Part shown: positions 5,451-41,931 of the stretch, in pieces | Numbering within the stretch: the stretch's first letter is position 1 | Layout: each line of letters starts with the position of its first letter | Assembly: GCF_947072475.1 (NCBI RefSeq) | Contig: NZ_CAMTIA010000013.1 | Location: forward strand, 4,553-68,552 | Reading direction: 5' to 3' | Origin: an uncultured Deefgea sp. | Lineage (GTDB): Bacteria > Pseudomonadota > Gammaproteobacteria > Burkholderiales > Chitinibacteraceae | DNA length: 64,000 nucleotides | Notes under the pieces: model-generated | Database searches by the model: none | Told to the model about the DNA's origin: nothing | Seen by the model: only the letters and a program-made list of their open reading frames with translations | Translations under genes and position numbers: made by a program

Positions 5451-7259
5451 ATGACCCGTGCACTTCGTAACGTCGCCATTATCGCTCACGTCGATCATGG
5501 TAAAACCACGCTGGTAGACCAGCTTTTACAACAAGCCGGTACTTTCCGCGCCAACCAAGCTATCGTTGAGCGCGTAATGGATTCCAACGATCTTGAAAAA
5601 GAACGTGGTATTACCATTCTGGCTAAAAACACTGCCATCGAATACGAAGGCACGCACATCAACATCGTTGACACCCCAGGTCACGCGGACTTCGGTGGTG
5701 AAGTTGAACGTGTATTGGGTATGGTTGACGGTGTATTGCTGCTGGTTGATGCCGTTGAAGGCCCAATGCCACAAACGCGTTTCGTGACCAAAAAAGCCTT
5801 GGCTTTGGGTCTGAAACCGATTGTTGTGATCAACAAAATCGACCGTCCGGGCGCACGTCCAGAATGGGTTCACGATCAAATCTTTGATTTGTTCGATAAA
5901 CTCGGCGCCACTGACGAACAACTCGATTTTAAAATGATTTTCGCTTCAGGTTTGAATGGCTTTGCCAAACTCACTTTGGAAGAAGAGTCTGACAATATGC
6001 GTCCTTTATTGGATCTATTGTTGGCGACTGTACCTAGCCCGCCGGGCGATCCTGAAGCGCCGTTGCAATTGCAAATTTCTGCGCTAGATTATTCAACTTA
6101 CACTGGTCGTCTAGGCGTAGGTAAAGTATTGAATGGTCGTATCAAGCCAGGTCAATCGGTTGTGGTTATGAATCATGGCGACCAAGTTTCGACTGGCCGT
6201 ATCAATCAAGTTTTGGGCTTTAAAGGCCTCGAGCGCGTACCAGTTGAAGAAGCTGAAGCCGGCGATATCATCATTATTTCTGGTTTGGATGAAATCGGTA
6301 TCGGTGTGACCATCTGCGATAAAGACGCGCCTGTTGGTTTGCCAGTACTTGGCGTTGATGAACCAACGTTGACGATGGACTTTATGGTGAATACTTCACC
6401 ACTCGCTGGTACTGAAGGCAAGTTTGTAACTAGCCGTCAAATCCGCGAACGTCTAGTTAAAGAATTGCTGGTTAACGTGGCACTCCGCGTTGAAGATACT
6501 GAAAACACAGATATTTTCCGTGTATCAGGTCGTGGCGAATTGCATTTGACGATTTTGCTAGAAACCATGCGCCGTGAAGGATTCGAGTTGGCCGTGGCTA
6601 AACCACGCGTGGTGTTTAAAGACATCGACGGCGTGAAATGCGAGCCGTACGAAAATCTGACCATCGACTTGGAAGACGAGCACCAAGGTGGCGTGATGGA
6701 AGAAATCGGTCGTCGTCGTGGCGAGTTGACCAATATGGAATCAGATGGCCAAGGCCGTACTCGTTTGGAATATCATGTTCCTGCGCGTGGCTTGATCGGT
6801 TTCCAAGGTGACTTCATGACCTTGACTCGCGGTACTGGCTTGATGAGCCACGTATTTGACGATTACGCACCGACTAAAGCTGAAATGCCAGGTCGTCACA
6901 ACGGTGTGTTGATTTCTCAAGACAATGGCGAAGCAGTGGCTTATGCGCTGTGGAAACTAGAAGATCGCGGTCGTATGTTCGTAGTGCCGGGCGACAAACT
7001 ATACGAAGGTATGGTCATCGGTATTCACAGTCGTGATAACGATTTGGTTGTTAACCCGATCAAAGGTAAACAACTGACTAACGTGCGTACTTCAGGTACT
7101 GACGAAGCAGTTCGTTTGACGACTGCAATCAAAATGACACTTGAGTCTGCGGTTGAGTTTATTGATGATGATGAATTGGTTGAAATTACACCAAAAACCA
7201 TCCGTATCCGTAAACGCTTCTTGACTGATAACGAACGTCGTCGCAATAAAACTGCTTAA
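5451..7259 (+). CDS. typA: Translational GTPase TypA/BipA
   Basis: [43 protein letters not shown]; C-terminal [14 protein letters not shown]. Confidence 0.98.
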
Positions 7260-7276
7260 TTGCGGGTTTGTTAGGT

Positions 7277-7307
7277 AAAACGCCAATCTTTTGATTGGCG
7301 TTTTTTT
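7277..7307 (+). terminator. Intrinsic terminator after typA (bidirectional shape)
   Basis: AAAACGCCAATC-tttt-GATTGGCGTTTT followed by more T (T7 in total). Confidence 0.85.
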
Positions 7308-7369
7308 GCGTCCGGTGTTTGCTTGGTGGCGGATTTCGACATGGCTGGGTCATGAGTTGATGGGGGCGT

Positions 7370-7403
7370 AAAAAAACGCCATCCAGAAGAATGGCGTTTT
7401 TTT
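7370..7403 (-). terminator. Intrinsic terminator after trxB (bidirectional shape)
   Basis: AAAAAAACGCCAT-ccagaaga-ATGGCGTTTTTTT between the convergent typA and trxB. Confidence 0.85.
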
Positions 7404-7458
7404 GGGTGTATTGCTATCGGCATTAGCCATCAACGCTGACGGCTAAATACCCGCTATT

Positions 7459-8472
<1,014 letters not shown>

Positions 8473-8637
8473 TTAAGAAAGCTTCTAATCTAGCTTTTAA
8501 ATCGGTGTCATAGTGTAAGACTTGTTTTTAATGTTGGGGGCGATGCTGGGTAATATCAAGTGTTGCTGTCGCTAAGGTTAATGGCTGGGTCAGAGGATAA
8601 AATTGTTTACAATTGCGATTCAATGTTTTGATGCGGT

Positions 8638-9360
8638 ATGGATCATGCAAAAAAGGAAGGCACGTTGCTGATCATCTTGAGGCGTTTTTTAGGTCATTTT
8701 CGAGCTTTGGCGCGCCCGCCTGTGAGGCGGGTGTTGTTAAAACAAATTTATTTCACCGCCAATGAGGCGGTCTGGTTGGTGGCGATTACTGGTTTTGCTT
8801 TGGGTGCGACGGTCGTGGTGCAGTTGCATGAAGAGTATGGGCAAAGTCGCGATGCGGCGTTGCGGCTTTTAGGGTCTTTGAGCTTTGTTGAGTTATCGCC
8901 CTTATTGGCGTGCTTGATGATGGTGGCGCGCTCGGCGTCAGCGATGGCCATTGAGTTGGCTTCGATGCGGATTTCGGGTGAGGTTGCCGCATTGCGGCGC
9001 ATGGGGATTTCCATTGAGTCTTATTTATTGCTACCGCGTGTGCTGGGTATGACCGTGGCGGCGGTGGTTTTGGCAGGGGTGATGGCGCTCACGTCGGTGT
9101 TGGGTGGCGTATTATTTGCCACCGGTTGGGATGCCAGTTATCAAATTTTTGCTTTGGAGCGCATGCTGCGCTGGCATGAAGTGTTGATTTGCTTATTTAA
9201 AGCCGCGAGCTTTGGTTTGGTGGCCGGCGTGGTGTCGATTTATGCTGGGTTTTCGGTGCCGCTGCAGGTGTCTGAAATTCCCAAAGCCGCATCGCGGGCG
9301 GTGTTGCGAGGGTTGCTAGCGCTGTTTGTGTTGGATTTTTGTTGGGCACTGGTGTTATGA
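8638..9360 (+). CDS. MlaE-family ABC permease
   Basis: VLLKQIYFT, ELSPLLACLMMVARSASAMAIELASMRISGEVAAL..MGI...YLLLPRV and final AASRAV match the MlaE (DUF140) pattern. Confidence 0.85.
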   Translation: MDHAKKEGTLLIILRRFLGHFRALARPPVRRVLLKQIYFTANEAVWLVAITGFALGATVVVQLHEEYGQSRDAALRLLGSLSFVELSPLLACLMMVARSASAMAIELASMRISGEVAALRRMGISIESYLLLPRVLGMTVAAVVLAGVMALTSVLGGVLFATGWDASYQIFALERMLRWHEVLICLFKAASFGLVAGVVSIYAGFSVPLQVSEIPKAASRAVLRGLLALFVLDFCWALVL

Positions 9361-9923
9361 CGCAAAGTGTTTTGAATGTTGATTTAAGCCTCGCATCCGG
9401 GCAGTTTTGGCTGAAGTTGGCTGAGCGTGACGATTTTTCCTGGTGGATTGATCGTATCTCAGCGGATTTAAATCGTTCGGCTTTGAGTGCGTGTGGGGTT
9501 TTGGAGGCGAGGCCGGTTTTAATTAGTAATTTGCGAGTGTGGGAAAACATCGTTTTGCCGTGTTGGTATCATGGTGCCGGCGATTTGTCGGGTGCCGAGT
9601 TGGCGTTGCAGGCTATTTTACAGCGGGCGGGTTTAGATGTTGCCACGCAGTCGGCGATGCTGGCGATGCTGCCTGATCGATTGGATCTCATGCAGCGCAG
9701 ACTGGTGGCTTTGCTGCGTTTGGCTTTGCAGGGTGCGCCAATTTGGCTGGTTGAGCAAGAATGGTGGGCGTGGTGGCATGATCCGCATTGTGCTGACTGG
9801 CCTTTGGTGAAGATCTTTTTGCAGCTGCCTTTGCCTCAGGTGCTGCTGGTGATCTCAACACAGAGCGCGCCTGCGGGGTTTGAGTGCGTTACCTTGGTAA
9901 AGAGTCGGGATAATGAAGAATAA
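9357..9923 (+). CDS. Degenerate MlaF-like ABC ATPase (probable pseudo-ATPase)
   Basis: ATG at 9357 overlaps the permease stop (ATGA). Retains the LISNLRVWENIVLP segment and LPDRLDLMQRRLVALLR..A..IWLVEQ spacing, but has no GxxGxGK(S/T), LSGGQ or Walker B DE. Confidence 0.7.
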   Translation: MTQSVLNVDLSLASGQFWLKLAERDDFSWWIDRISADLNRSALSACGVLEARPVLISNLRVWENIVLPCWYHGAGDLSGAELALQAILQRAGLDVATQSAMLAMLPDRLDLMQRRLVALLRLALQGAPIWLVEQEWWAWWHDPHCADWPLVKIFLQLPLPQVLLVISTQSAPAGFECVTLVKSRDNEE

Positions 9924-10893
9924 AGTTCAGTTGTTAAAGGATTGCGATCCGCGGTTTCGTTGGCTAACTTGGCGGGTGTTGTTGTTGGCAACTTGGGTTT
10001 TTGTGGCTTTTGCCGTGCTGTTGATGGTTTTGGGGCAGCGGCAAGGCTTTTTTAGTAGCAAGGAAAAAGTGCATTTTGTGGCCGAAAATGGCAGTGGATT
10101 GACGCCGGGTATGCAGGTGCGATTGTCTGGGTTTCGTATTGGGGTGACTGATAAGGTGAGCTTGAATGAGCAGGCAAAGGTGGATGTTACTTTATTGATT
10201 GAGCAGCAATATATGCAATGGGTGAAGGCCGATTCAATCGCTATTTTGCAGCAAGAGGGTTTGATTGGGGATCACTACATCGAAATTGCTGGTGGTTCAG
10301 TAGCGGCACCTCGTTTGGTTGAGGGTGGCGTATTGGTGTTTGCGCCGGCGCTGGGTATTGCTGATATTGCGCAAAATTTAAGCAATCGGACTTTGCCGAT
10401 GATTGACTCGATGCAGCAAACATTTGATTACCTGAATGACCCTAAGGGGGATATTCGTTTGGCGCTGGCCAATGTGCGGCAGCTGAGTGTTGAAATGCGT
10501 GAAACGCGTCAACGGCTCGATCAATTATTAACTCGAGTTGATGGCGTGGTGGATGTTGAAGCACGCAATACCTTAAACAGTGCGGATCGCTTGTTGACGC
10601 GGGTGGATGGGGTGGCTGCAGAGTTAAATACGAAATTGTCGCCCGTGCTGATCGGGGCGGCGTCGATTGTGGTGAGTGTTGATGCTGCGGCCAAAGATGC
10701 GAGTGCGACGGCCGCTGTAGTGCGTCAGGCGGTTGAGCTGTCTGCGCCCAGTTTGCCTAGCTTGGTGCGTCATTCCGATGAGTTGCTGTATGGTGGTCGG
10801 CAAACTTTGGATGCGGTGAATCAAAGTTGGCCAATCAATACCATGCTAGCGCCTTTGCCACTGCAGGCGCCTGTACCGGAGAGTCGGCGATGA
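9913..10893 (+). CDS. MlaD/MCE-domain protein with long C-terminal helical extension
   Basis: N-terminal TM; MCE motif GLTPGMQVRLSGFRIGV.V..V; SIAILQQEGLIGDHYIEI..GS; then about 190 residues of helical, Ala/Leu-rich sequence. Confidence 0.88.
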   Translation: MKNKVQLLKDCDPRFRWLTWRVLLLATWVFVAFAVLLMVLGQRQGFFSSKEKVHFVAENGSGLTPGMQVRLSGFRIGVTDKVSLNEQAKVDVTLLIEQQYMQWVKADSIAILQQEGLIGDHYIEIAGGSVAAPRLVEGGVLVFAPALGIADIAQNLSNRTLPMIDSMQQTFDYLNDPKGDIRLALANVRQLSVEMRETRQRLDQLLTRVDGVVDVEARNTLNSADRLLTRVDGVAAELNTKLSPVLIGAASIVVSVDAAAKDASATAAVVRQAVELSAPSLPSLVRHSDELLYGGRQTLDAVNQSWPINTMLAPLPLQAPVPESRR

Positions 10894-11672
10894 ATCGAGT
10901 TTGGGTGTTTTTGTTTTGCGCGGTGCTCACGGCTTGCGGTACGGCGCCGGTGGTGACTTCACCTGCACGTATCTTTGCCGAGCGCTCGCACCGTATGGCG
11001 TTGCAGGCAATACAGGATGGACGTATTGAAAGTGCTGAGGGTGAATGGCAGCAGGCGCTGCGTGGATATCAGGCCATAGATGATTGGCGTGGGCAGGGTA
11101 TGGCCAGATTGGGTTTGGCGCAAGCAAGTCAACGTTTGGGGCGTGGTGTTCAGGCTGAGCAAGCTTTGATGCCGATGCTCCAAGAGGGCGAATTTTTGCC
11201 CGATCAGCAAGCGCAGGCTGCTTTGCAGTTGGCGCAACTGGCTGTGCGGCAAGATTTACCCCGTGCCGAGCAGTTATTGGCTCAGGCGCGTTTAAATTGT
11301 GCTGCGCCGTGTTTTCTAGTGGTGCAGATGGATAATTTAGCGGCACAGCTTGCACTTGCGCGAGGTGATGCGTCTGCTGCGGCGCAGTTTGCGGCGCAGG
11401 CGCTCGATGGGGCAAAAGAACTTCCGGCTGAGCGCGCCTTTTCGCGGCGTTTATTGGCGGAGGTGGCCTTGCAGCAAGGGCGCTGGCACGATGCTGAGAG
11501 CCAGTTGATGCAGGCGATTGATTCAGATCGCAACAGTGCCGAGCCTATCTGGTTGCTGGATGATTACCGATTGCTATTACGGATCGCCAAGGAAAAAGGC
11601 GATATTGCGTTGCAAAAGAAGGCGCAGGCGCATTTGGGGTCTTTGTGCGCAGCGATTGAATGTTCGCCTTGA
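10890..11672 (+). CDS. TPR-like lipoprotein
   Basis: ATG at 10890 overlaps the mlaD stop (ATGA). Lipobox FLFCAVLTA-C with +2 Gly; Ala/Leu/Gln helical repeats (WQQALRGYQAID, ARLGLAQA, AEVALQQGRWHDAESQL). Confidence 0.75.
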   Translation: MNRVWVFLFCAVLTACGTAPVVTSPARIFAERSHRMALQAIQDGRIESAEGEWQQALRGYQAIDDWRGQGMARLGLAQASQRLGRGVQAEQALMPMLQEGEFLPDQQAQAALQLAQLAVRQDLPRAEQLLAQARLNCAAPCFLVVQMDNLAAQLALARGDASAAAQFAAQALDGAKELPAERAFSRRLLAEVALQQGRWHDAESQLMQAIDSDRNSAEPIWLLDDYRLLLRIAKEKGDIALQKKAQAHLGSLCAAIECSP

Positions 11673-11697
11673 GTAAAAACTGGATTTCCTATACAAT
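11669..11697 (+). promoter_or_regulatory. Sigma70 promoter of rpsB-tsf
   Basis: TTGAGT (11669-11674) - 17 nt - TACAAT (11692-11697). Confidence 0.7.
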
Positions 11698-11719
11698 ATT
11701 TGGCTTGCTATGTTTGTGT

Positions 11720-11843
11720 TGGTTTAAAATTTCGACATAAGCACAGCTAAAATCCCGTTCGCCCTGTCAAGGGTGCGCTTCAAATGGTTTGAAGCGTCCC
11801 GTGCGAATGGAAGACCTAACCCTAAGACACATTGGAGAATTAA
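11720..11843 (+). ncRNA. rpsB 5' leader (t44 / S2 autoregulatory leader-like)
   Basis: Position between promoter and rpsB; AGGGTGC, perfect hairpin CGCTTCAAA-tgg-TTTGAAGCG (11776-11796) and TGGAAGACCTAACCCT, resembling the TGGAGGCATAACCCC end of the enterobacterial rpsB leader as I recall it. Confidence 0.6.
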
Positions 11844-12569
11844 ATGTCTGTAAGTATGCGCGATATGCTCGAAGCTGGTGTTCACTTTGGCCACCAAACC
11901 CGTTACTGGAACCCGAAAATGGGTAAGTACATCTTCGGTGCACGCAACAAGATTCACATTATCAACTTAGAAAAAACATTACCATTGTTTGAAGACGCGA
12001 TGAAATACATCCGTCAATTGTCTGCAAACAAAGGCAATGTAATGTTTGTTGGTACAAAACGCGCGGCCCGCGAAATCATCGCTGAAGAAGCAGCTCGTGC
12101 AGGCGCTCCTTTCGTTGATCACCGCTGGTTGGGTGGTATGTTGACTAACTTTAAAACAGTTAAGCAATCAATCAAACGCCTGACTGAAATGAAAGCGGTT
12201 CTGGAAAATGCTGAAGGCAGTGGCTACGGCAAGAAAGAATTGTTGATGATGAAACGTGATGTTGAAAAACTAGAGCGCTCATTAGGTGGTATTAAAGAGA
12301 TGGGCGGTTTGCCTGATGCGATTTTCGTTATCGATACTGGCTATCAAAAAGGCGCGATCGTTGAAGCCATTAAATTGGGTATCCCAGTGATTGGCGTTGT
12401 TGATACCAACAACAGCCCAGAAGGTATTGACTTCGTAATCCCTGGTAACGATGATTCTTCACGTGCTATTCGTTTGTACGCTCGTGCTGCTGCTGATGCA
12501 GTACTTGAAGGTCGTAACCAAGCAACACAAGCGTTGGCTGCTGCGGTTGCCGAAGCTGCTGCTGAGTAA
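11844..12569 (+). CDS. rpsB: 30S ribosomal protein S2
   Basis: [48 protein letters not shown]. Confidence 0.99.
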
Positions 12570-12591
12570 GTCGCTCATCGCTGAAACCAAG

Positions 12592-12616
12592 AAAAAGGGG
12601 CGTCTGCCCCTTTTTT
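12592..12616 (+). terminator. Terminator/attenuator hairpin between rpsB and tsf
   Basis: AAAAAGGGGC-gtct-GCCCCTTTTTT. Confidence 0.75.
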
Positions 12617-12663
12617 GTAATGTTTACCGAATAAACTGAAATCCCTATTCAGGAGAATACATA

Positions 12664-13545
12664 ATGTCTATTACTGCAAAAATGGTTGCTGAGCTACGTG
12701 AATTAACCGGCCTTGGCATGATGGAATGCAAGAAAGCTTTGGTTGAAGTTGAGGGCGACATCAAAAAAGCAGAAGAACTATTGCGTATTAAGTCAGGCAA
12801 TAAAGCATCAAAAATGGCTGGTCGTACTGCTGCTGAAGGTGTTATTACCTCGTTTATCTCTGCCGACAAAAAAGTAGGCGCGGTGGTTGAAGTTAACTGC
12901 GAAACAGACTTTGTTGCGAAAGATGATGGTTTTGTTGCTTTTGCTAAAGGCATTGCTCAAGCTGCCGCAGAATCTAATGCCGCTGATGTTGAAGCTTTGT
13001 CTGCCGTTCAATTGGCGACAGGCGAAACCGTTGAAGAAGCACGTAAAGCATTGATCGCTAAACTAGGCGAAAACATGACTGTACGTCGTTTTGCGCGCTA
13101 CGAAACTGAAGGTGAGTTGTCAACGTACTTGCACGGCGCAAAAATCGGTGTGTTGGTCAATTTGATCGGCGGCGACGAAGCTTTGGGTAAAGACATCGCG
13201 ATGCATATCGCTGCGGCAAAACCTAAAGCGTTGGATGCCAGCGGTGTTGATCCTGAGTTGATCGAAACTGAGCGCCGTGTTGCGATCGAACGCGCTAAAG
13301 CGGACAACAAGCCAGAAGAAATGCTCACTAAGATTGCTGACGGTACTGTGAACAAGTTCTTGAAAGACATTACTTTAGTCAACCAAGTGTTTATTAAAGC
13401 CGATGATGGCAAACAAACTATTGAGCAATTGCTGAAATCTAAATCAGCCACAGTAGCTGGTTTCACCATGTTTGTTGTTGGTGAAGGCATTGAGAAAAAA
13501 GTGGTAGATTACGCTGCTGAAGTTGCAGCAGCTGCACAGCTTTAA
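12664..13545 (+). CDS. tsf: Elongation factor Ts
   Basis: [41 protein letters not shown]. Confidence 0.99.
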
Positions 13546-13568
13546 GTCTAGTCTTAGGCTTTGAAATG

Positions 13569-13596
13569 ACGCCGCACGGTGACGTGCGGCGTTTGT
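13569..13596 (+). terminator. Hairpin after tsf (probable terminator)
   Basis: ACGCCGCAC-ggtgac-GTGCGGCGT followed by TTGT (short U-tract). Confidence 0.55.
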
Positions 13597-13631
13597 ACGA
13601 CCACGACCACGCACTGTAAAAGGATAAATAC

Positions 13632-14351
13632 ATGAGTCAAACCACAAAATACAAACGCATTTTGTTGAAGCTCTCCGGTGAAGCCTTAATGGGGGATGAT
13701 AGCTACGGCATTAACCGAGCTACGATCGACCGGATTGTGCAGGAAGTGAAAAGCGTTGTTGATTTGGGCGTTCAAGTCGCTATCGTCATCGGTGGTGGCA
13801 ATATTTTTCGCGGCGTTGCGCCTGCAGCGTCGGGCATGGATCGCGCTACTGCTGATTACATGGGGATGCTGGCCACCGTCATGAATGCATTGGCATTGCA
13901 AGATGCGATGAAGCGTGCAGGCATTATTTCACGTGTTCAATCTGCGCTGACCATCGCTCAGGTTGCCGAGCCGTATGTTCGCGGTAAGGCCATTCAATAT
14001 CTAGAAGAAAATAAAGTTGTTATTTTTGGTGCCGGTACGGGTAATCCATTTTTTACCACCGACACTGCAGCTGCGCTGCGTGGCATGGAAATGGGCGCTG
14101 ATATCGTCATCAAGGCGACCAAAGTGGATGGCGTTTATACCGATGATCCTAAAAAGAATCCGGATGCCATTCGTTATCAAACTGTGACGTTTGATGAAGT
14201 CATTGGTCGTAATTTGAAGGTCATGGATGCGACGGCATTTGCTTTGTGCCGCGATCAGAAAATGAATATTTGCGTATTAAGCATCTTTAAAGCCGGCGCA
14301 TTAAAGCGTATGGTGCTTGGGGAAGATGAGGGTACGCTGGTACACTGCTAA
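13632..14351 (+). CDS. pyrH: UMP kinase
   Basis: [46 protein letters not shown]. Confidence 0.99.
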
Positions 14352-14371
14352 GCGTATTGATTCGCAGGGCG

Positions 14372-14404
14372 ACGGGCGGAGCGATGTTCCGCCTGTTTTT
14401 TATT
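14372..14404 (+). terminator. Terminator-like hairpin between pyrH and frr
   Basis: ACGGGCGGAG-cgatg-TTCCGCCTGT (two G-U pairs) followed by TTTTTTATT. Confidence 0.6.
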
Positions 14405-14418
14405 GCAGCAAGAGGTAA

Positions 14419-14979
14419 ATGATGATTGCAGATCTAAAGAAAACCACCGAAGCCAAAATGCAAAAAACGGCTGAAAAACTACGCACGGACTTGGCTAAGG
14501 TTCGTACTGGGCGTGCTCATACGGGCTTGCTAGATCATGTACAGGTGGATTACTGGGGCAGTATGGTACCAGTGAGTCAGGTTGCGAATGTGACGCTGAT
14601 TGATTCACGTACGATTGGTGTGCAGCCGTGGGAAAAACCGATGGTGGCTAAGGTTGAAAAGGCCATTCGTGATTGTGATTTGGGCTTAAACCCCGCCTCG
14701 CAAGGTGATTTGATTCGCGTGCCGATGCCGATGCTGACTGAAGAGCGTCGTAAAGATTTAATTAAAGTGGTGCGCAATGAAACCGAAGAAGCACGGGTTG
14801 CACTGCGTAATGTACGCCGCGATGCCAATGATCAAATGAAGCGCGCGCTCAAGGATAAAGACATTTCTGAAGATGACGAGCGTCGCGGTCAGGATGACGT
14901 GCAAAAACTGACTGACAAATATATTGCAGAGCTCGATAAGCAGCTTGCAGATAAAGAAAAAGAACTTTTGACGGTATAA
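14419..14979 (+). CDS. frr: Ribosome recycling factor
   Basis: [38 protein letters not shown]. Confidence 0.99.
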
Positions 14980-15007
14980 AAGTCGATTTGATTAGGCGGT
15001 AAGAAAC

Positions 15008-15766
15008 GTGGCTTTATTCTCTCGCGAACGCGAAGAACCCAAGGTTTTAGCGGGTAAAATTCCTCAACATATTGCGGTCATTATGGATGGTAACGGACGC
15101 TGGGCTAAACAGCGTCTGATGCCCCGTGTTTATGGGCATAAAAAGGGGGTTGATTCTTTGCGTGAGGTGATTAGCACCTGCAAAGAATTGGGCGTGCAAT
15201 GCCTGACTGTTTTTGCTTTTTCGAGTGAAAACTGGCGTCGCCCTGAGGAAGAAGTCACGTTTTTGATGGGGCTGTTTTTGCAAGTCTTGCAAACTGAAGT
15301 TGAGCGGATGTATCGCAACAATATTCAATTAAAAATCATTGGTAATCGCTGTCATTTTTCGGCTGAATTATTAACGATGATTGAAAATGCAGAAGCTAAA
15401 ACGGCAGGCAATGATGGTTTAATGCTGACCATTGCGGCCGATTACGGTGGGCATTGGGATGTGCTGCAAGCAACGCATCGCTTGCTGGCTGAGCATCCTG
15501 AGCGAGCTTGCGAGTTTGGCGAAGAAGACTTGAAGCCTTATCTGGCGATGGCTTATGCGCCCGATCCTGATCTATTTATCCGTACTGGTGGTGAGCAAAG
15601 AATAAGTAATTTCTTGCTATGGCAGTTGGCCTACACCGAACTTTATTTTACTGATTTGCCTTGGCCGGACTTTGGTCGTGAGCCTTTGCTGGATGCCATT
15701 GCATGGTATCAAGGGCGAGAGCGACGCTTTGGGCGTATCAGTGAACAACTAGATGAATCAAAATAA
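15008..15766 (+). CDS. uppS: Undecaprenyl diphosphate synthase
   Basis: HIAVIMDGNGRWA, FAFSSENWRRP, PDLFIRTGGEQRISNFLLWQLAYTEL. Confidence 0.98.
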   Translation: MALFSREREEPKVLAGKIPQHIAVIMDGNGRWAKQRLMPRVYGHKKGVDSLREVISTCKELGVQCLTVFAFSSENWRRPEEEVTFLMGLFLQVLQTEVERMYRNNIQLKIIGNRCHFSAELLTMIENAEAKTAGNDGLMLTIAADYGGHWDVLQATHRLLAEHPERACEFGEEDLKPYLAMAYAPDPDLFIRTGGEQRISNFLLWQLAYTELYFTDLPWPDFGREPLLDAIAWYQGRERRFGRISEQLDESK

Positions 15767-15776
15767 ATAATTATAT

Positions 15777-16604
15777 ATGCTGAAAACCCGTGTTTTAACT
15801 ACGTTACTGTTGTTGCCGCTGGTTTTAGCAGCGCTGTTTTTATTGCCACCAATGGGGTGGACTGTGTTTTGCGCCCTCCTAATGGGGCTGGCCGCTTGGG
15901 AATGGAAAAATCTAGTCGGTATGCATGGCCGTTTTTCCAAGTGTTACCCCCTGTTGACGGCGGTTTTGTTTTTGCTCTGCTCTCGTTTTGCGCCCATTCA
16001 TTTTATTTATGGTTTGTTGTTGGCATCGATGGTTTTTTGGCTGTGTTTGGTGCCATTCTGGCTGAAATTTAAATGGCCTTTAAATTCAGTGGGCAATCTA
16101 AATGCTTTTAGCGGTTGGGCATTATTGATCCCTGCCGGTCTTGCGATGATTGTATTGCGCGGCAATGGTTGGCCCTTATTGTGTGTAATGGCCATTGCTT
16201 GGGTCGCCGACTCATTTGCGTATTTTTCTGGCAAGCAATTTGGCAAAAAAAAATTAGCGCCCAATATCAGCCCAGGTAAAAGTTGGGAGGGGGTATATGG
16301 TGGCGCACTGGCTGTTGTCTGCTATTGCCTGCTTATACCCAAGCCATTTCTATTGTTACCCAGCATTGTTGTTTTACAAAGCCAAACCGCACAAATGGTC
16401 GTATGGGCTGTTTTTGCGTTGGTGCTCACCGCTGCGAGCGTGATGGGTGACTTGCTTGAGTCTTTATTAAAGCGTCAGCGCGGTATCAAAGACAGCAGTC
16501 ATTTATTGCCAGGACATGGCGGCATATTGGATCGTGTCGATAGTTTGTTGGCCATCTTACCCATCTCTGCGGCGATTTACTTACTCCACCTTATGCCTTT
16601 GTAA
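15777..16604 (+). CDS. cdsA: Phosphatidate cytidylyltransferase
   Basis: Multi-TM; ADSFAYF.G..FGKKKLAPNISPGKSWEG and GDLLESLLKR..GIKDSSHLLPGHGGILDRVDS. Confidence 0.97.
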   Translation: MLKTRVLTTLLLLPLVLAALFLLPPMGWTVFCALLMGLAAWEWKNLVGMHGRFSKCYPLLTAVLFLLCSRFAPIHFIYGLLLASMVFWLCLVPFWLKFKWPLNSVGNLNAFSGWALLIPAGLAMIVLRGNGWPLLCVMAIAWVADSFAYFSGKQFGKKKLAPNISPGKSWEGVYGGALAVVCYCLLIPKPFLLLPSIVVLQSQTAQMVVWAVFALVLTAASVMGDLLESLLKRQRGIKDSSHLLPGHGGILDRVDSLLAILPISAAIYLLHLMPL

Positions 16605-39932: not shown

Positions 39933-41765
39933 TTAATCGGCTTCTTCGCCTAAAAACCCACCGCTTTGATGTGACCACAGCCGCGCATACAGGCCACCTT
40001 GTTCTAGCAAGCTTTGATGGTCGCCTTGCTCAACAATTCGCCCTTGGTCGAGTACGATCAAGCGATCCATCGCCGCAATGGTGGATAAGCGATGGGCAAT
40101 CGCCACCACGGTTTTACCTTCCATTAGGCGGTATAAGCTGGTTTGAATCGCCGCCTCAACTTCAGAGTCGAGCGCGCTGGTGGCTTCGTCGAGCAATAAA
40201 ATCGGCGCGTCTTTGAGCATTACGCGGGCAATCGCAATCCTTTGGCGTTGTCCGCCCGAGAGTTTGACGCCGCGCTCGCCCACATGCGCGTCGTAGCCGG
40301 TGCGCCCGGCAGGATCGCTTAAGTTCAGAATAAATTCATGCGCTTCGGCGCGTTTGGCGGCGGCAATCATTTCCTCATCCGTGGCATTGGGGCGGCCGTA
40401 TAAGATGTTTTCGCGCACCGAGCGATGTAACAGCGACGTGTCTTGCGTCACCATGCCAATGTGCGCGCGTAAGCTGTCTTGCGCTACCTTGGCGATGTTT
40501 TGGCCGTCAATCGTAATGTGCCCAGACTGAAGGTCGTAAAAGCGCAGTAATAGGTTCACAATCGTCGATTTGCCTGCGCCGGAGCGACCGACTAAGCCGA
40601 TTTTTTCGCCAGCGCGAATTTGTAGCGACAGCTGCTTGAGTAGTAAGCGATCTGCTTCGTAGCCAAAATCAACGTGGGCAAATTGGATTTCGCCGCGTGA
40701 TACAGTCAGTTGCGTAGCGTCGGGTTCGTCATTGACTTCGTGCGGCGTGGTCAAGGTGTTGATGCCGTCTTGTACGGTGCCAATATGCTCAAATAGTGCG
40801 GCGATTTCCCACATAATCCATTGCGACATGCCGTTTAAACGCAGCGCCATCGCCAATGAGGCCGCCACCGCGCCTGCGCTTACCTGACCATGGCTCCATA
40901 AATACAAAGCAGTACCGGCGCTAGCGATAATCAAGCACACGCTTAAGGTGTGATTGACCACCTCAAAACAACTGACTAAACGCATTTGGCCATGCACGGT
41001 GTGCATAAATTCTTGCATCGCGCTGCGGGCAAATGCTGCTTCGCGGCGACCGTGCGAAAACAGCTTCACCGTGGCAATATTGGTATAGGCATCGGTAATG
41101 CGGCCGGTCATCAGTGAGCGAGCGTCAGCTTGGTTTTGCGCTGCCTTACCCAGACGCGGAACAAAATAAAACATCGCGCCAATATACAGCAACATCCACG
41201 ACAGCAGCGGCACTAATAACCACAGATCAAAGCTGCCAGCGACAGCCAGCATGGTGAAAAAATAAATCGCCACAAACACCATGATGTCAGTGACGATAAA
41301 CACCGTTTCACGCACCGCTAACGCGGTTTGCATGACTTTGGCCGAAACGCGCCCAGCAAATTCATCCTGATAAAAACGCATGCTTTGACTGAGCATTTGC
41401 CGGTGAAAGTTCCAGCGCAGCAACATCGGGAAATTGCCGGCTAAGGCTTGATGTTTTAGTAAAGTTTGCAGGCCAACCACCAGCGGGCTGAGTAATAACA
41501 CGCCCGCAATCAGGCTCAGTCGAAACTGCTCTTGCGCCCAGAGTTGACTCGGTTCGACATGGGCCAGCCAGTCAACAATATGCCCGAGCAAGCTATACAA
41601 AATCGCTTCAAAAGAACCAATGATGGCGGTGCAGAGCATCATGCTAAAAATCAGTGGGCGTAGCCCTTTTGTACAGCGCCATATAAATGATTTGAAATCA
41701 TGGGGTAAGGTTTTGTTTTGCTGTTCTGGGTAGGGGTGAACTATATTTTCAAAAAGTCGAAACAC
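39933..41765 (-). CDS. ABC exporter, fused TMD-NBD (multidrug/MsbA-like)
   Basis: Six-TM domain, GLVGRSGAGKST, VTQD, LSGGQRQRIAIAR, LLLDEATSALD, IAHRLST. Confidence 0.95.
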   Translation of the reverse strand: MFRLFENIVHPYPEQQNKTLPHDFKSFIWRCTKGLRPLIFSMMLCTAIIGSFEAILYSLLGHIVDWLAHVEPSQLWAQEQFRLSLIAGVLLLSPLVVGLQTLLKHQALAGNFPMLLRWNFHRQMLSQSMRFYQDEFAGRVSAKVMQTALAVRETVFIVTDIMVFVAIYFFTMLAVAGSFDLWLLVPLLSWMLLYIGAMFYFVPRLGKAAQNQADARSLMTGRITDAYTNIATVKLFSHGRREAAFARSAMQEFMHTVHGQMRLVSCFEVVNHTLSVCLIIASAGTALYLWSHGQVSAGAVAASLAMALRLNGMSQWIMWEIAALFEHIGTVQDGINTLTTPHEVNDEPDATQLTVSRGEIQFAHVDFGYEADRLLLKQLSLQIRAGEKIGLVGRSGAGKSTIVNLLLRFYDLQSGHITIDGQNIAKVAQDSLRAHIGMVTQDTSLLHRSVRENILYGRPNATDEEMIAAAKRAEAHEFILNLSDPAGRTGYDAHVGERGVKLSGGQRQRIAIARVMLKDAPILLLDEATSALDSEVEAAIQTSLYRLMEGKTVVAIAHRLSTIAAMDRLIVLDQGRIVEQGDHQSLLEQGGLYARLWSHQSGGFLGEEAD

Positions 41766-41931
41766 TGAGAGTTAGCCTTGCTGCCATTCGGATTAATAGA
41801 TTGTACCGAATCTGACGCAAGCAGCGTGGGCTATTGTCAGTTATCATCCGGTTTTTATGCTGTTGAGTTGAATGCTGTTGCTCAACTCAGTGCAATGCAA
41901 TTTCGGCTAGGCCGATTTAATTTGATGATGG

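Follow-up and report, generated by a model that had tools for sequence, protein, structure and literature searches.

A conserved MCE gene cassette in Deefgea that pairs a predicted pseudo-ATPase with a TPR-type lipoprotein

Results

A four-gene MCE cassette

The window analyzed here, 64,000 nucleotides (nt) of contig NZ_CAMTIA010000013.1 from an uncultured Deefgea sp., contains four adjoining genes that encode an MlaE-type permease, a predicted pseudo-nucleotide-binding domain, an MCE protein, and a TPR-type lipoprotein, which we refer to as E, F*, D, and T, respectively (Table 1; all positions are those of the window unless a locus is named). Together they appear to specify an envelope-spanning MCE system built around an ABC-type subunit that has lost its catalytic motifs. 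We read the junctions directly in the sequence: E and F* share an ATGA overlap at 9357-9360, F* and D overlap by 11 nt at 9913-9923, and D and T share a second ATGA overlap at 10890-10893. This confirms the tight coupling of the four genes described in an earlier reading of the window made from its letters alone (the sequence-only reading), and we take the genes to be translationally coupled. Neither MlaC nor MlaA is among the products of the cassette, no STAS domain is found in E or elsewhere in it, and a canonical mlaF is not present within the 64-kb window.

Table 1. Coordinates of the cassette genes, their sequence features, and the flanking genes in the window.
Feature	Position (nt)	Strand	Basis or remark
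typA	5451-7259		
trxB (flank)	7459-8412	-	
E (MlaE-type inner-membrane permease, 240 aa)	8638-9360	+	PF02405
F* (cytoplasmic pseudo-nucleotide-binding domain, predicted, 188 aa)	9357-9923, from ATG at 9357	+	ABC fold
Walker A position of F*	9417-9443 (residues 21-29)	+	LAERDDFSW opposite GGSGSGKST of intact paralogue
Family hallmark of F*, LISNLRVWENIVLPCWYH	9519-9572 (residues 55-72)	+	Q-loop C-terminal side and first helix of helical subdomain
Signature (C-loop) position of F*	9681-9695	+	LDLMQ where LSGGQ/LSGGM in intact ATPases
Walker B position of F*	9741-9758	+	IWLVEQ; Asp to Glu, catalytic Glu to Gln (VEQ vs LDE)
D (MCE protein, 326 aa)	9913-10893	+	PF02470, TIGR00996
N-terminal transmembrane helix of D	~residues 13-44	+	AF2, confident
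MCE domain of D	10066-10293 (residues 52-127)	+	PF02470 (MlaD), E value 2.7e-12
Hydrophobic pore loop of D, EGLIGD	10255-10272	+	Alignment with MlaD and Mce1B
Helical needle region of D	10357-10821 (residues 149-303)	+	AF2, low confidence
T (TPR-type lipoprotein, 260 aa)	10890-11672, from ATG at 10890	+	Lipobox, TPR matches
Lipobox of T, LTAC	10926-10937	+	Gly at +2
rpsB (flank)	11844-12569		

F* is predicted to keep an ABC fold

Searched on its own, the window F* has no match in Pfam and draws only faint matches to ABC ATPases (ThiQ, CcmA, and, in the PDB, MJ0796 with an E value of 0.13), which cover the region from the Q-loop to Walker B. A profile search that ran exhaustively through 1.84 billion cluster representatives recovered 282 relatives at E values up to 1e-3 and 54 at E values up to 1e-10, with lengths from ~175 to 240 aa. 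PF00005 is matched by 38 of 69 family members at a best E value of 1.3e-10, and the family profile finds LolD (1.3e-18), YbbA (1.4e-17), and Pseudomonas aeruginosa MlaF (6e-16) in the PDB. The AlphaFold2 (AF2) model of the window protein has a mean pLDDT of 90.3 and a pTM of 0.85, and ABC nucleotide-binding subunits or domains make up nearly all of its top 50 Foldseek matches in the PDB. YbbA, MJ0796, MacB, LolD, FtsE, MlaF (7d06_B, 7ch8_J), and MceG (8fed_G/H) are matched with a Foldseek probability of 1.0 and TM-scores of ~0.5-0.63. Model, Foldseek, and profile thus agree on the RecA-like core and helical subdomain of an ABC nucleotide-binding domain (NBD), the fold that the sequence-only reading had proposed for the 188-aa open reading frame (ORF). 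Judged by its predicted structure and by the profile of its family, F* is a descendant of an ABC NBD. The alternative that it is not an ABC domain was ruled out by the fold and profile searches.

The family exists in a long form of ~220 aa that keeps the antiparallel β subdomain and a short form of ~185 aa that has lost most of it, as is the case for the window protein. Deefgea piscis is the source of the closest database protein for both F* (81% identity) and D (94%). NCBI annotates F* as a "hypothetical protein," and the automatic names of its relatives in IMG are "MlaF" or "ATP-binding protein." NCBIfam matches score far under the curated cut-offs, for example at 50 bits versus 441 for MlaF.

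The catalytic motifs of F* are lost and a putative docking groove is retained

To map the motifs, we aligned the F* family to two ATPases from related loci, one intact and of the MlaF type, the other LolD/YbbA-like, and residue counts per position were taken over 143 family members. The alignment places AERDDFSW at the P-loop, LDLMQ at the LSGGQ position, and WLVEQ at Walker B, exactly as the sequence-only reading had assigned them. The Walker A position of the window protein is acidic and has neither a Gly-rich loop nor the Lys-Ser/Thr pair, and family-wide the consensus there is likewise acidic with the Gly-rich loop absent. Among the 150 best of the 282 representatives, none contains GxxxxGK[ST] and just one matches a loose signature pattern. 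The Leu of the signature position is kept in 129 of the 143 aligned members and Gly-Gly in none. At the Walker B Asp position, 58 members have Asp and 52 have Glu, while at the position of the catalytic Glu this residue is not among the six commonest; a Trp-rich stretch, EWWAWWHD, occupies the D-loop position just after Walker B in the window protein. The Q-loop Gln is absent from the window F*, and Gln falls outside the six commonest residues at this position in the family. Pairwise alignment sets STQ, SFE, or LAD opposite the THD of the H-loop, whose His may therefore be missing, although the large alignment is gapped and unreliable in this region. With Walker A, the Q-loop Gln, LSGGQ, and the catalytic Glu all lost, F* appears to be catalytically dead. 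Because none of the 150 best representatives keeps an intact Walker A, we read the motif loss as ancient and family-wide rather than as recent decay.

The hallmark of the family is a nearly invariant block of 18 residues, SNL(K/R)VWENxxLPxWYH, in which N64 is found in all 143 members, L67 in 142, L59 in 141, E63 in 137, W62 in 136, P68 in 129, H72 in 121, and Y71 in 115. It aligns with LTVSENIGLPLREH of MlaF-type ATPases, that is, with the L-T-V-x-E-N-I/V-x-x-P of real NBDs. This segment comprises the C-terminal side of the Q-loop together with the first helix of the helical subdomain. In ABC transporters, it makes up the groove into which the membrane subunit's coupling helix fits.

E matches PF02405 (MlaE) with an E value of 3.4e-40, and its PDB matches are MlaE of P. 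aeruginosa and Escherichia coli (with 7ch8_G at 1.7e-14) and YrbE1A (2.5e-11). Across 57 cassette permeases, residues E85, P88, L89, R98, S99, A102, M110, E115, P133, K188, and D233 are invariant, and they coincide with those of an intact Sideroxydans paralogue, the stretch matching the coupling helix included. This coupling-helix region, ARSASAMAIELASMRISGEVAALRRMGI, is conserved, and its residues E106, M110, E115, L119, and I124 are mostly as in the intact paralogue. Since the groove of F* is nearly invariant and E has kept its coupling-helix residues, the presumed E-F* interface appears to be conserved on both partners.

D is predicted to form a helical needle

D has a single MCE domain, and TIGR00996 (Mce family) spans residues 25-289. 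The AF2 monomer models the transmembrane helix and the MCE domain with confidence, and behind the latter it places five helices, at residues 149-174, 181-209, 215-251, 259-276, and 286-303. The sequence-only reading was correct about the one MCE domain; its estimate of about 190 helical residues has to be lowered to ~155 (from about residue 149 to 303) in a tail of ~180 residues. The best Foldseek matches of the D model are the Mce1 subunits of Mycobacterium smegmatis, over ~300 columns, followed by MlaD. In the PDB, the D family profile matches 13hr_I at an E value of 1.2e-16 over residues 41-280 and Mce1B at 2e-11. The code 13HR is carried by a JBC 2026 paper (PMC13631591), and because 13hr_I is a 312-aa Mce/MlaD protein, the length of PA3213, we presume that this chain is P. 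aeruginosa PA3213, complexed with the lipoprotein PA3214. The needle of this system is ~170 Å long and the periplasmic PA3213-PA3214 subcomplex ~230 Å (PMC13631591).

D orthologues carry PF28544, "Helical_needle," and a conserved SWP motif lies near the C terminus of D. Its pore loop aligns with GLLGE of Pseudomonas MlaD and DLIGN of Mce1B, with the two hydrophobic tip residues kept. By homology with these proteins, D subunits should assemble into a hexameric ring around a hydrophobic pore, with a needle of sufficient length to span the periplasm.

T is a TPR-type lipoprotein

The N terminus of T, MNRVWVFLFCAVLTAC-G, is a lipoprotein signal peptide. Among the orthologues, a pattern search detected a lipobox in 57 of 60 and inspection by eye added 2 more; position +2 is taken by G, S, or A and never by Asp. 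Without Asp at +2, T would be sorted to the outer membrane. The TPR_12, TPR_19, and HemY_N matches of the window protein are sub-threshold. For TPR_12, it scores 29.0 bits, just below the gathering score of 30.1, and orthologues reach 44.2 and 66.9 bits, so the sequence-only reading of the last gene as a TPR-type lipoprotein with an LTA-C lipobox and Gly at +2 holds. The family alignment contains the invariant residues C16, R187, D213, and D225. From the residues at +2 and the strict adjacency of the genes, we infer that T is an outer-membrane lipoprotein that contacts the needle.

No match to T was found by sequence in the PDB. Homology of T to MlaA or PqiC is unsupported, as the protein has no VacJ or ABC_trans_aux match and no PDB sequence match; PF03886, by contrast, is easily detected in the lipoprotein of a paralogous set described below. 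The T family also has a near-invariant Cx3-4C motif (C137/C141 in the window protein, nt 11298-11312), and the Chitinibacteraceae proteins have a second Cys pair at the extreme C terminus, SLCAAIECSP (11640-11669). These pairs may be periplasmic disulfides or a metal site.

The cassette is conserved in distant taxa

A scan of one genome per species with the single pattern SNLRVWEN, which biases the sample toward short-form clades that contain the Arg, yielded 60 loci, and these were annotated with the window proteins. F*, D, and T are mutually adjacent in every fetched locus that is long enough, E is in the cassette wherever the locus extends far enough, and all loci have one MCE gene and one permease gene per cassette. 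The reading frame of F* is intact in ~60 loci of distant taxa. The order E-F*-D-T between trxB and rpsB occurs at the same site in every Chitinibacteraceae genus found: Deefgea, Chitinibacter, Silvimonas, Jeongeupia, Formivibrio, Chitinilyticum, Andreprevotia, and Amantichitinum. In the Gallionellaceae (Sideroxydans, Sideroxyarcus, and Gallionella), the order is F*-D-T-(X)-E and the site lies between dnaB and thrS. Two Nitrospirae metagenome-assembled genomes (MAGs) have E-F*-D-T, as do two long-form representatives from other metagenomes or MAGs, whose MCE protein carries PF28544. A high-GC metagenomic relative of F* with 36% identity is flanked in the same way, in the order MlaE, F* (228 aa), MCE protein (335 aa), and TPR lipoprotein (282 aa).

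One Sideroxydans contig (locus L037, 540-4139) carries a complete set of the Mpc/PA3211 type 3 kb upstream of its dead-NBD cassette. This set consists of a STAS-MlaE protein (395 aa), an ATPase with GGSGSGKS and LSGGM (278 aa), an MCE protein (316 aa), and a PqiC-like PF03886 lipoprotein (215 aa). As both types occur on one contig, the cassette is a paralogous variant that is distinct from the active system and coexists with it, and is neither a replacement for it nor a degraded copy of a sole system.

In at least 30 Gallionellaceae loci (L017-L059; for example, L022:9143-10936), a gene for a CHASE2 protein with a class III adenylate/guanylate cyclase domain (597 aa) lies between T and E with overlapping ends, which gives the order F*-D-T-cyclase-E; only a short remnant of it is left in L034 and L040. 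The gene is absent from the Chitinibacteraceae (the window included), the Nitrospirae MAGs, and the long-form loci. Its position suggests a link between the MCE system and cyclic-nucleotide signaling in the Gallionellaceae.

F* is under purifying selection

We calculated ratios of nonsynonymous to synonymous substitution rates (dN/dS) by the Nei-Gojobori method for the window, D. piscis (locus L064), and a metagenomic Deefgea contig (locus L065). The values are 0.01-0.05 for E, 0.14-0.21 for F*, 0.05 for D, and 0.15-0.16 for T, and the neighboring cdsA and uppS genes give 0.04-0.07. The medians over nine Gallionellaceae loci are 0.06 for E, 0.087 for F* (range 0.03-0.16), 0.06 for D, and 0.12 for T. 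Pairs between Chitinibacteraceae genera were discarded, as their synonymous sites are saturated and even E is inflated. Because dN/dS is 0.01-0.21 among the three Deefgea genomes and the cassette occurs in more than 60 independent loci, the four ORFs are real genes and not chance ORFs. The ratios point to purifying selection on F*, at a level less constrained than for E and D, and the gene is on this evidence clearly no pseudogene. The family-wide motif loss and the purifying selection on F* rule out a recent decay of mlaF.

Genomic surroundings and expression

The Chitinibacteraceae cassette lies directly upstream of the conserved rpsB-tsf-pyrH-frr-uppS-cdsA-dxr-rseP-bamA cluster (11844-16604, and downstream of the cassette in L064 and L065), a neighborhood rich in envelope-biogenesis genes. 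On the other side, D. piscis has a DUF2238 gene between typA and trxB (L064:7364-7984) that is absent in the window, a small indel beside the cassette. Promoter, terminator, and Rfam scans over 7200-12200 gave nothing informative, and no terminator-like site was found between T and rpsB; promoter-like hexamers lie ahead of rpsB at 11669-11753. The sole ORF of the window with both Walker A (GRSGAGKS) and LSGGQ lies at 39933-41771 on the minus strand and encodes 612 aa, probably a fused ABC exporter.

In a fish-gut metatranscriptome (run X10), we found contigs ~91% identical to D and part of E (8778-8928 and 9866-10912) at a depth similar to that of its rpsB/tsf contigs, a weak hint, and the only sign of expression, that a related Deefgea strain expresses the operon in the fish gut. 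Near-identical DNA is present in lake-water metagenomes (X1-X4).

Discussion

A proposed pseudo-ATPase scaffold in an envelope-spanning machine

We favor, with moderate confidence, a reading of the cassette as one envelope-spanning MCE machine that has a pseudo-ATPase as scaffold and works without ATP hydrolysis. Our confidence is higher for the architecture and for the role of the dead subunit as a scaffold, and lower for the absence of any energy input. If the proteins are arranged like their homologues in MlaFEDB, PA3211-3214, Mpc, and Mce1, two E subunits would form the inner-membrane chamber, six D subunits would build the ring and the ~170 Å needle above it, and T would cap or anchor the needle tip at the outer membrane in place of a PqiC-like lipoprotein. 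The conservation pattern suggests that a pair of F* subunits docks on E's coupling helices by way of the SNL(K/R)VWENxxLPxWYH groove, where F* could serve as a permanent structural subunit that holds the E dimer in a transport-competent shape. A hydrophobic cargo, most likely glycerophospholipid, would then move between the inner membrane's outer leaflet and the outer membrane, either down a chemical gradient or driven by a factor outside the cassette, as is assumed for PqiABC and LetAB.

In ATP-driven closure of an NBD dimer, the Walker A motif of one subunit comes together with the signature motif of the other. With an acidic stretch at the P-loop position and no signature motif, F* would not form an ATP sandwich dimer, and since it lacks both motifs, neither a dimer of two F* subunits nor a mixed dimer of F* and MlaF would have a complete ATP site; an ATP-independent conduit is therefore the most likely arrangement. 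An MCE transporter that spans the envelope, is built on a dead ATPase, and ends in a TPR lipoprotein at the outer membrane was the proposal of the sequence-only reading, and the motifs of the relatives, the predicted ABC fold, and the selection on F* all agree with it. Among the three mechanisms it offered, the scaffold and the ATP-independent conduit are favored by our analysis, and the loan of an ATPase from another locus is disfavored.

Several observations weigh against this picture. In the assembly of Deefgea sp. CFH1-16 (L004:6985-8550), +2-nt insertions, which map to window positions ~9490 and ~10489, frameshift both F* and D, and NCBI annotates just a 134-aa fragment of F* there; these frameshifts are either real decay or assembly error, and the system may be dispensable in some settings. 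A Lys or Arg persists close to the former P-loop in about a third of F* family members, and the Walker B Asp persists in many; F* may bind nucleotide through an unconventional site. The helical region of D is modeled with low confidence in the AF2 monomer (pLDDT ~40-55), as would be expected of a part that folds in the oligomer only.

Alternative explanations

The disfavored loan would have an MlaF- or MceG-type ATPase, encoded elsewhere, power E by swapping or pairing with F*, which would then be a regulator or a place-holder. In mycobacteria, one ATPase encoded outside the mce operons, MceG, serves several Mce permeases, and the Mce1 structure 8fed contains it. An intact MlaF-type ATPase is encoded close to the cassette in at least one genome (L037), and E has a canonical coupling helix, to which an active NBD could in principle bind. 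However, F* keeps the docking groove and is translationally coupled to E in the window, and should fill both sites, the only ones that MlaE offers an ATPase; the mixed dimer would have no complete ATP site, F* being without Walker A and LSGGQ; and purifying selection would not be expected to maintain a mere place-holder in two or more phyla. We regard a borrowed motor as improbable. We give slightly more credence, although we still think it unlikely, to a cassette that transports nothing and forms a static tether linking the inner membrane with the outer one, or else an envelope sensor; F* would then act as an output or adaptor domain in the cytoplasm. The dead motor would fit such a role, as would the CHASE2 cyclase gene within the cassette in at least 30 Gallionellaceae loci, and TPR lipoproteins are typically protein-protein scaffolds. 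Against it, D retains its hydrophobic pore loop and E its conserved residues, as in bona fide lipid transporters, the needle region of D is of the same family as lipid-conducting needles, and the cyclase is absent from the Chitinibacteraceae, the Nitrospirae MAGs, and the long-form loci and reduced to a remnant in some Gallionellaceae.

The operon might also be decaying, with its second gene a functionless remnant of mlaF that serves as a spacer for translational coupling. All the catalytic motifs are gone, NCBI names the product a hypothetical protein, and F* and D are frameshifted in L004. This explanation is effectively refuted by dN/dS values of 0.09-0.21, far below 1, by the near-invariance of the 18-residue block over 143 diverged members, and by a confidently predicted globular fold in a reading frame that stays intact across distant taxa.

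Significance

The energization of MCE systems and the direction in which they move lipids are open questions in outer-membrane biogenesis. Mla burns ATP, and Pqi and Let work without any ATPase. The cassette is a natural intermediate, with the full ABC architecture, the motor apparently switched off, and conservation over a very long time. A functional complex would mean that an MlaE/MCE conduit can do without ATP hydrolysis. It would also offer a clean experimental system in which to tell the structural role of an NBD from its catalytic role, with dead- and live-NBD paralogues that could be compared in one organism, as the Sideroxydans contig suggests. The few known outer-membrane partners of MCE needles (PMC13631591) would be joined by a TPR lipoprotein. 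The automatic annotations "MlaF" and "ATP-binding protein" for relatives of F* are corrected by our analysis.

The broader claim would be that this is the first natural ABC-type transporter family with a fully dead NBD as a structural part and with a third, TPR-type class of lipoprotein partner, forming an ATP-independent MCE lipid bridge in Betaproteobacteria (Chitinibacteraceae and Gallionellaceae), Nitrospirae, and uncultured lineages that is wired to a CHASE2 nucleotidyl cyclase in the Gallionellaceae. We put the chance that all of this holds at about even.

Comparison with known MCE and ABC systems

The systems closest to the cassette are PA3211-PA3214 of P. aeruginosa (PDB 13HR; PMC13631591) and MpcEFDA of Brucella abortus (PMC12436622), and they widen the comparison with MlaFEDB and PqiBC on which the sequence-only reading had relied. 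Their gene order is that of the cassette and runs permease, NBD, MCE-needle protein, and lipoprotein; in both, the NBD is described as an ATPase homologous to MlaF, and MpcE also has a STAS domain (PMC12436622). Both they and the cassette have an MlaE-type permease and a single MCE domain followed by a needle, lack MlaC and MlaA within the cassette, and are predicted to be tripartite and to span the periplasm. They differ in that PA3212 and MpcF are described as active ATPases, whereas the NBD of the cassette appears dead. Their lipoprotein is PqiC-like (PF03886, ABC_trans_aux) and octameric, in contrast to a TPR protein without detectable PqiC similarity, and the STAS domain of the Mpc permease has no counterpart in E. 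The known outer-membrane partners of MCE systems are a β-barrel or lipoproteins of MlaA-like or PqiC-like fold (PMC13631591).

With the MlaFEDB-MlaC-MlaA system of E. coli, the cassette shares the MlaE fold and its conserved residues, a single-MCE subunit whose pore loop is hydrophobic and which has an N-terminal transmembrane anchor, and a gene for an NBD-fold subunit beside that of the permease. E. coli MlaF, however, is an active ATPase with a C-terminal handshake extension and MlaB as a partner, neither of which is found in the cassette. E. coli MlaD is short (183 aa) and passes lipid to the soluble carrier MlaC, and the outer-membrane protein MlaA is of a different fold; none of these has an equivalent in the cassette. 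For the actinobacterial Mce1-4 systems (YrbEAB, MceA-F, and MceG; PDB 8FED), the likeness lies in D, which matches TIGR00996 and the Mce1 subunits over its full length, with an MCE domain and long helices. These systems offer a precedent for an MCE needle and for an ATPase encoded outside the operon, but they use six different MCE proteins, two permeases, and an active MceG, where the cassette has one MCE gene, one permease gene, and a predicted dead NBD. PqiABC and LetAB are envelope-bridging MCE tunnels without an ATPase, and the PqiB needle docks on an outer-membrane lipoprotein. Unlike the cassette, they are built of multi-MCE proteins without an NBD-like subunit, and PqiA and LetA are no ABC permeases.

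Degenerate-site ABC transporters, such as heterodimeric exporters and CFTR, resemble F* in having lost catalytic residues without losing the fold or the contact with the membrane domain. These transporters retain one consensus site, and ATP still binds at the degenerate one by way of a Walker A motif that is intact. In the cassette, by contrast, both would-be sites are without Walker A and signature motifs. In the full-text literature searched, we found neither a dead NBD nor a TPR lipoprotein described for an MCE system. The cassette thus appears to be a trans-envelope MCE-ABC machine of the PA3211/Mpc type with two features undescribed in the papers searched, a conserved dead NBD and a dedicated TPR lipoprotein.

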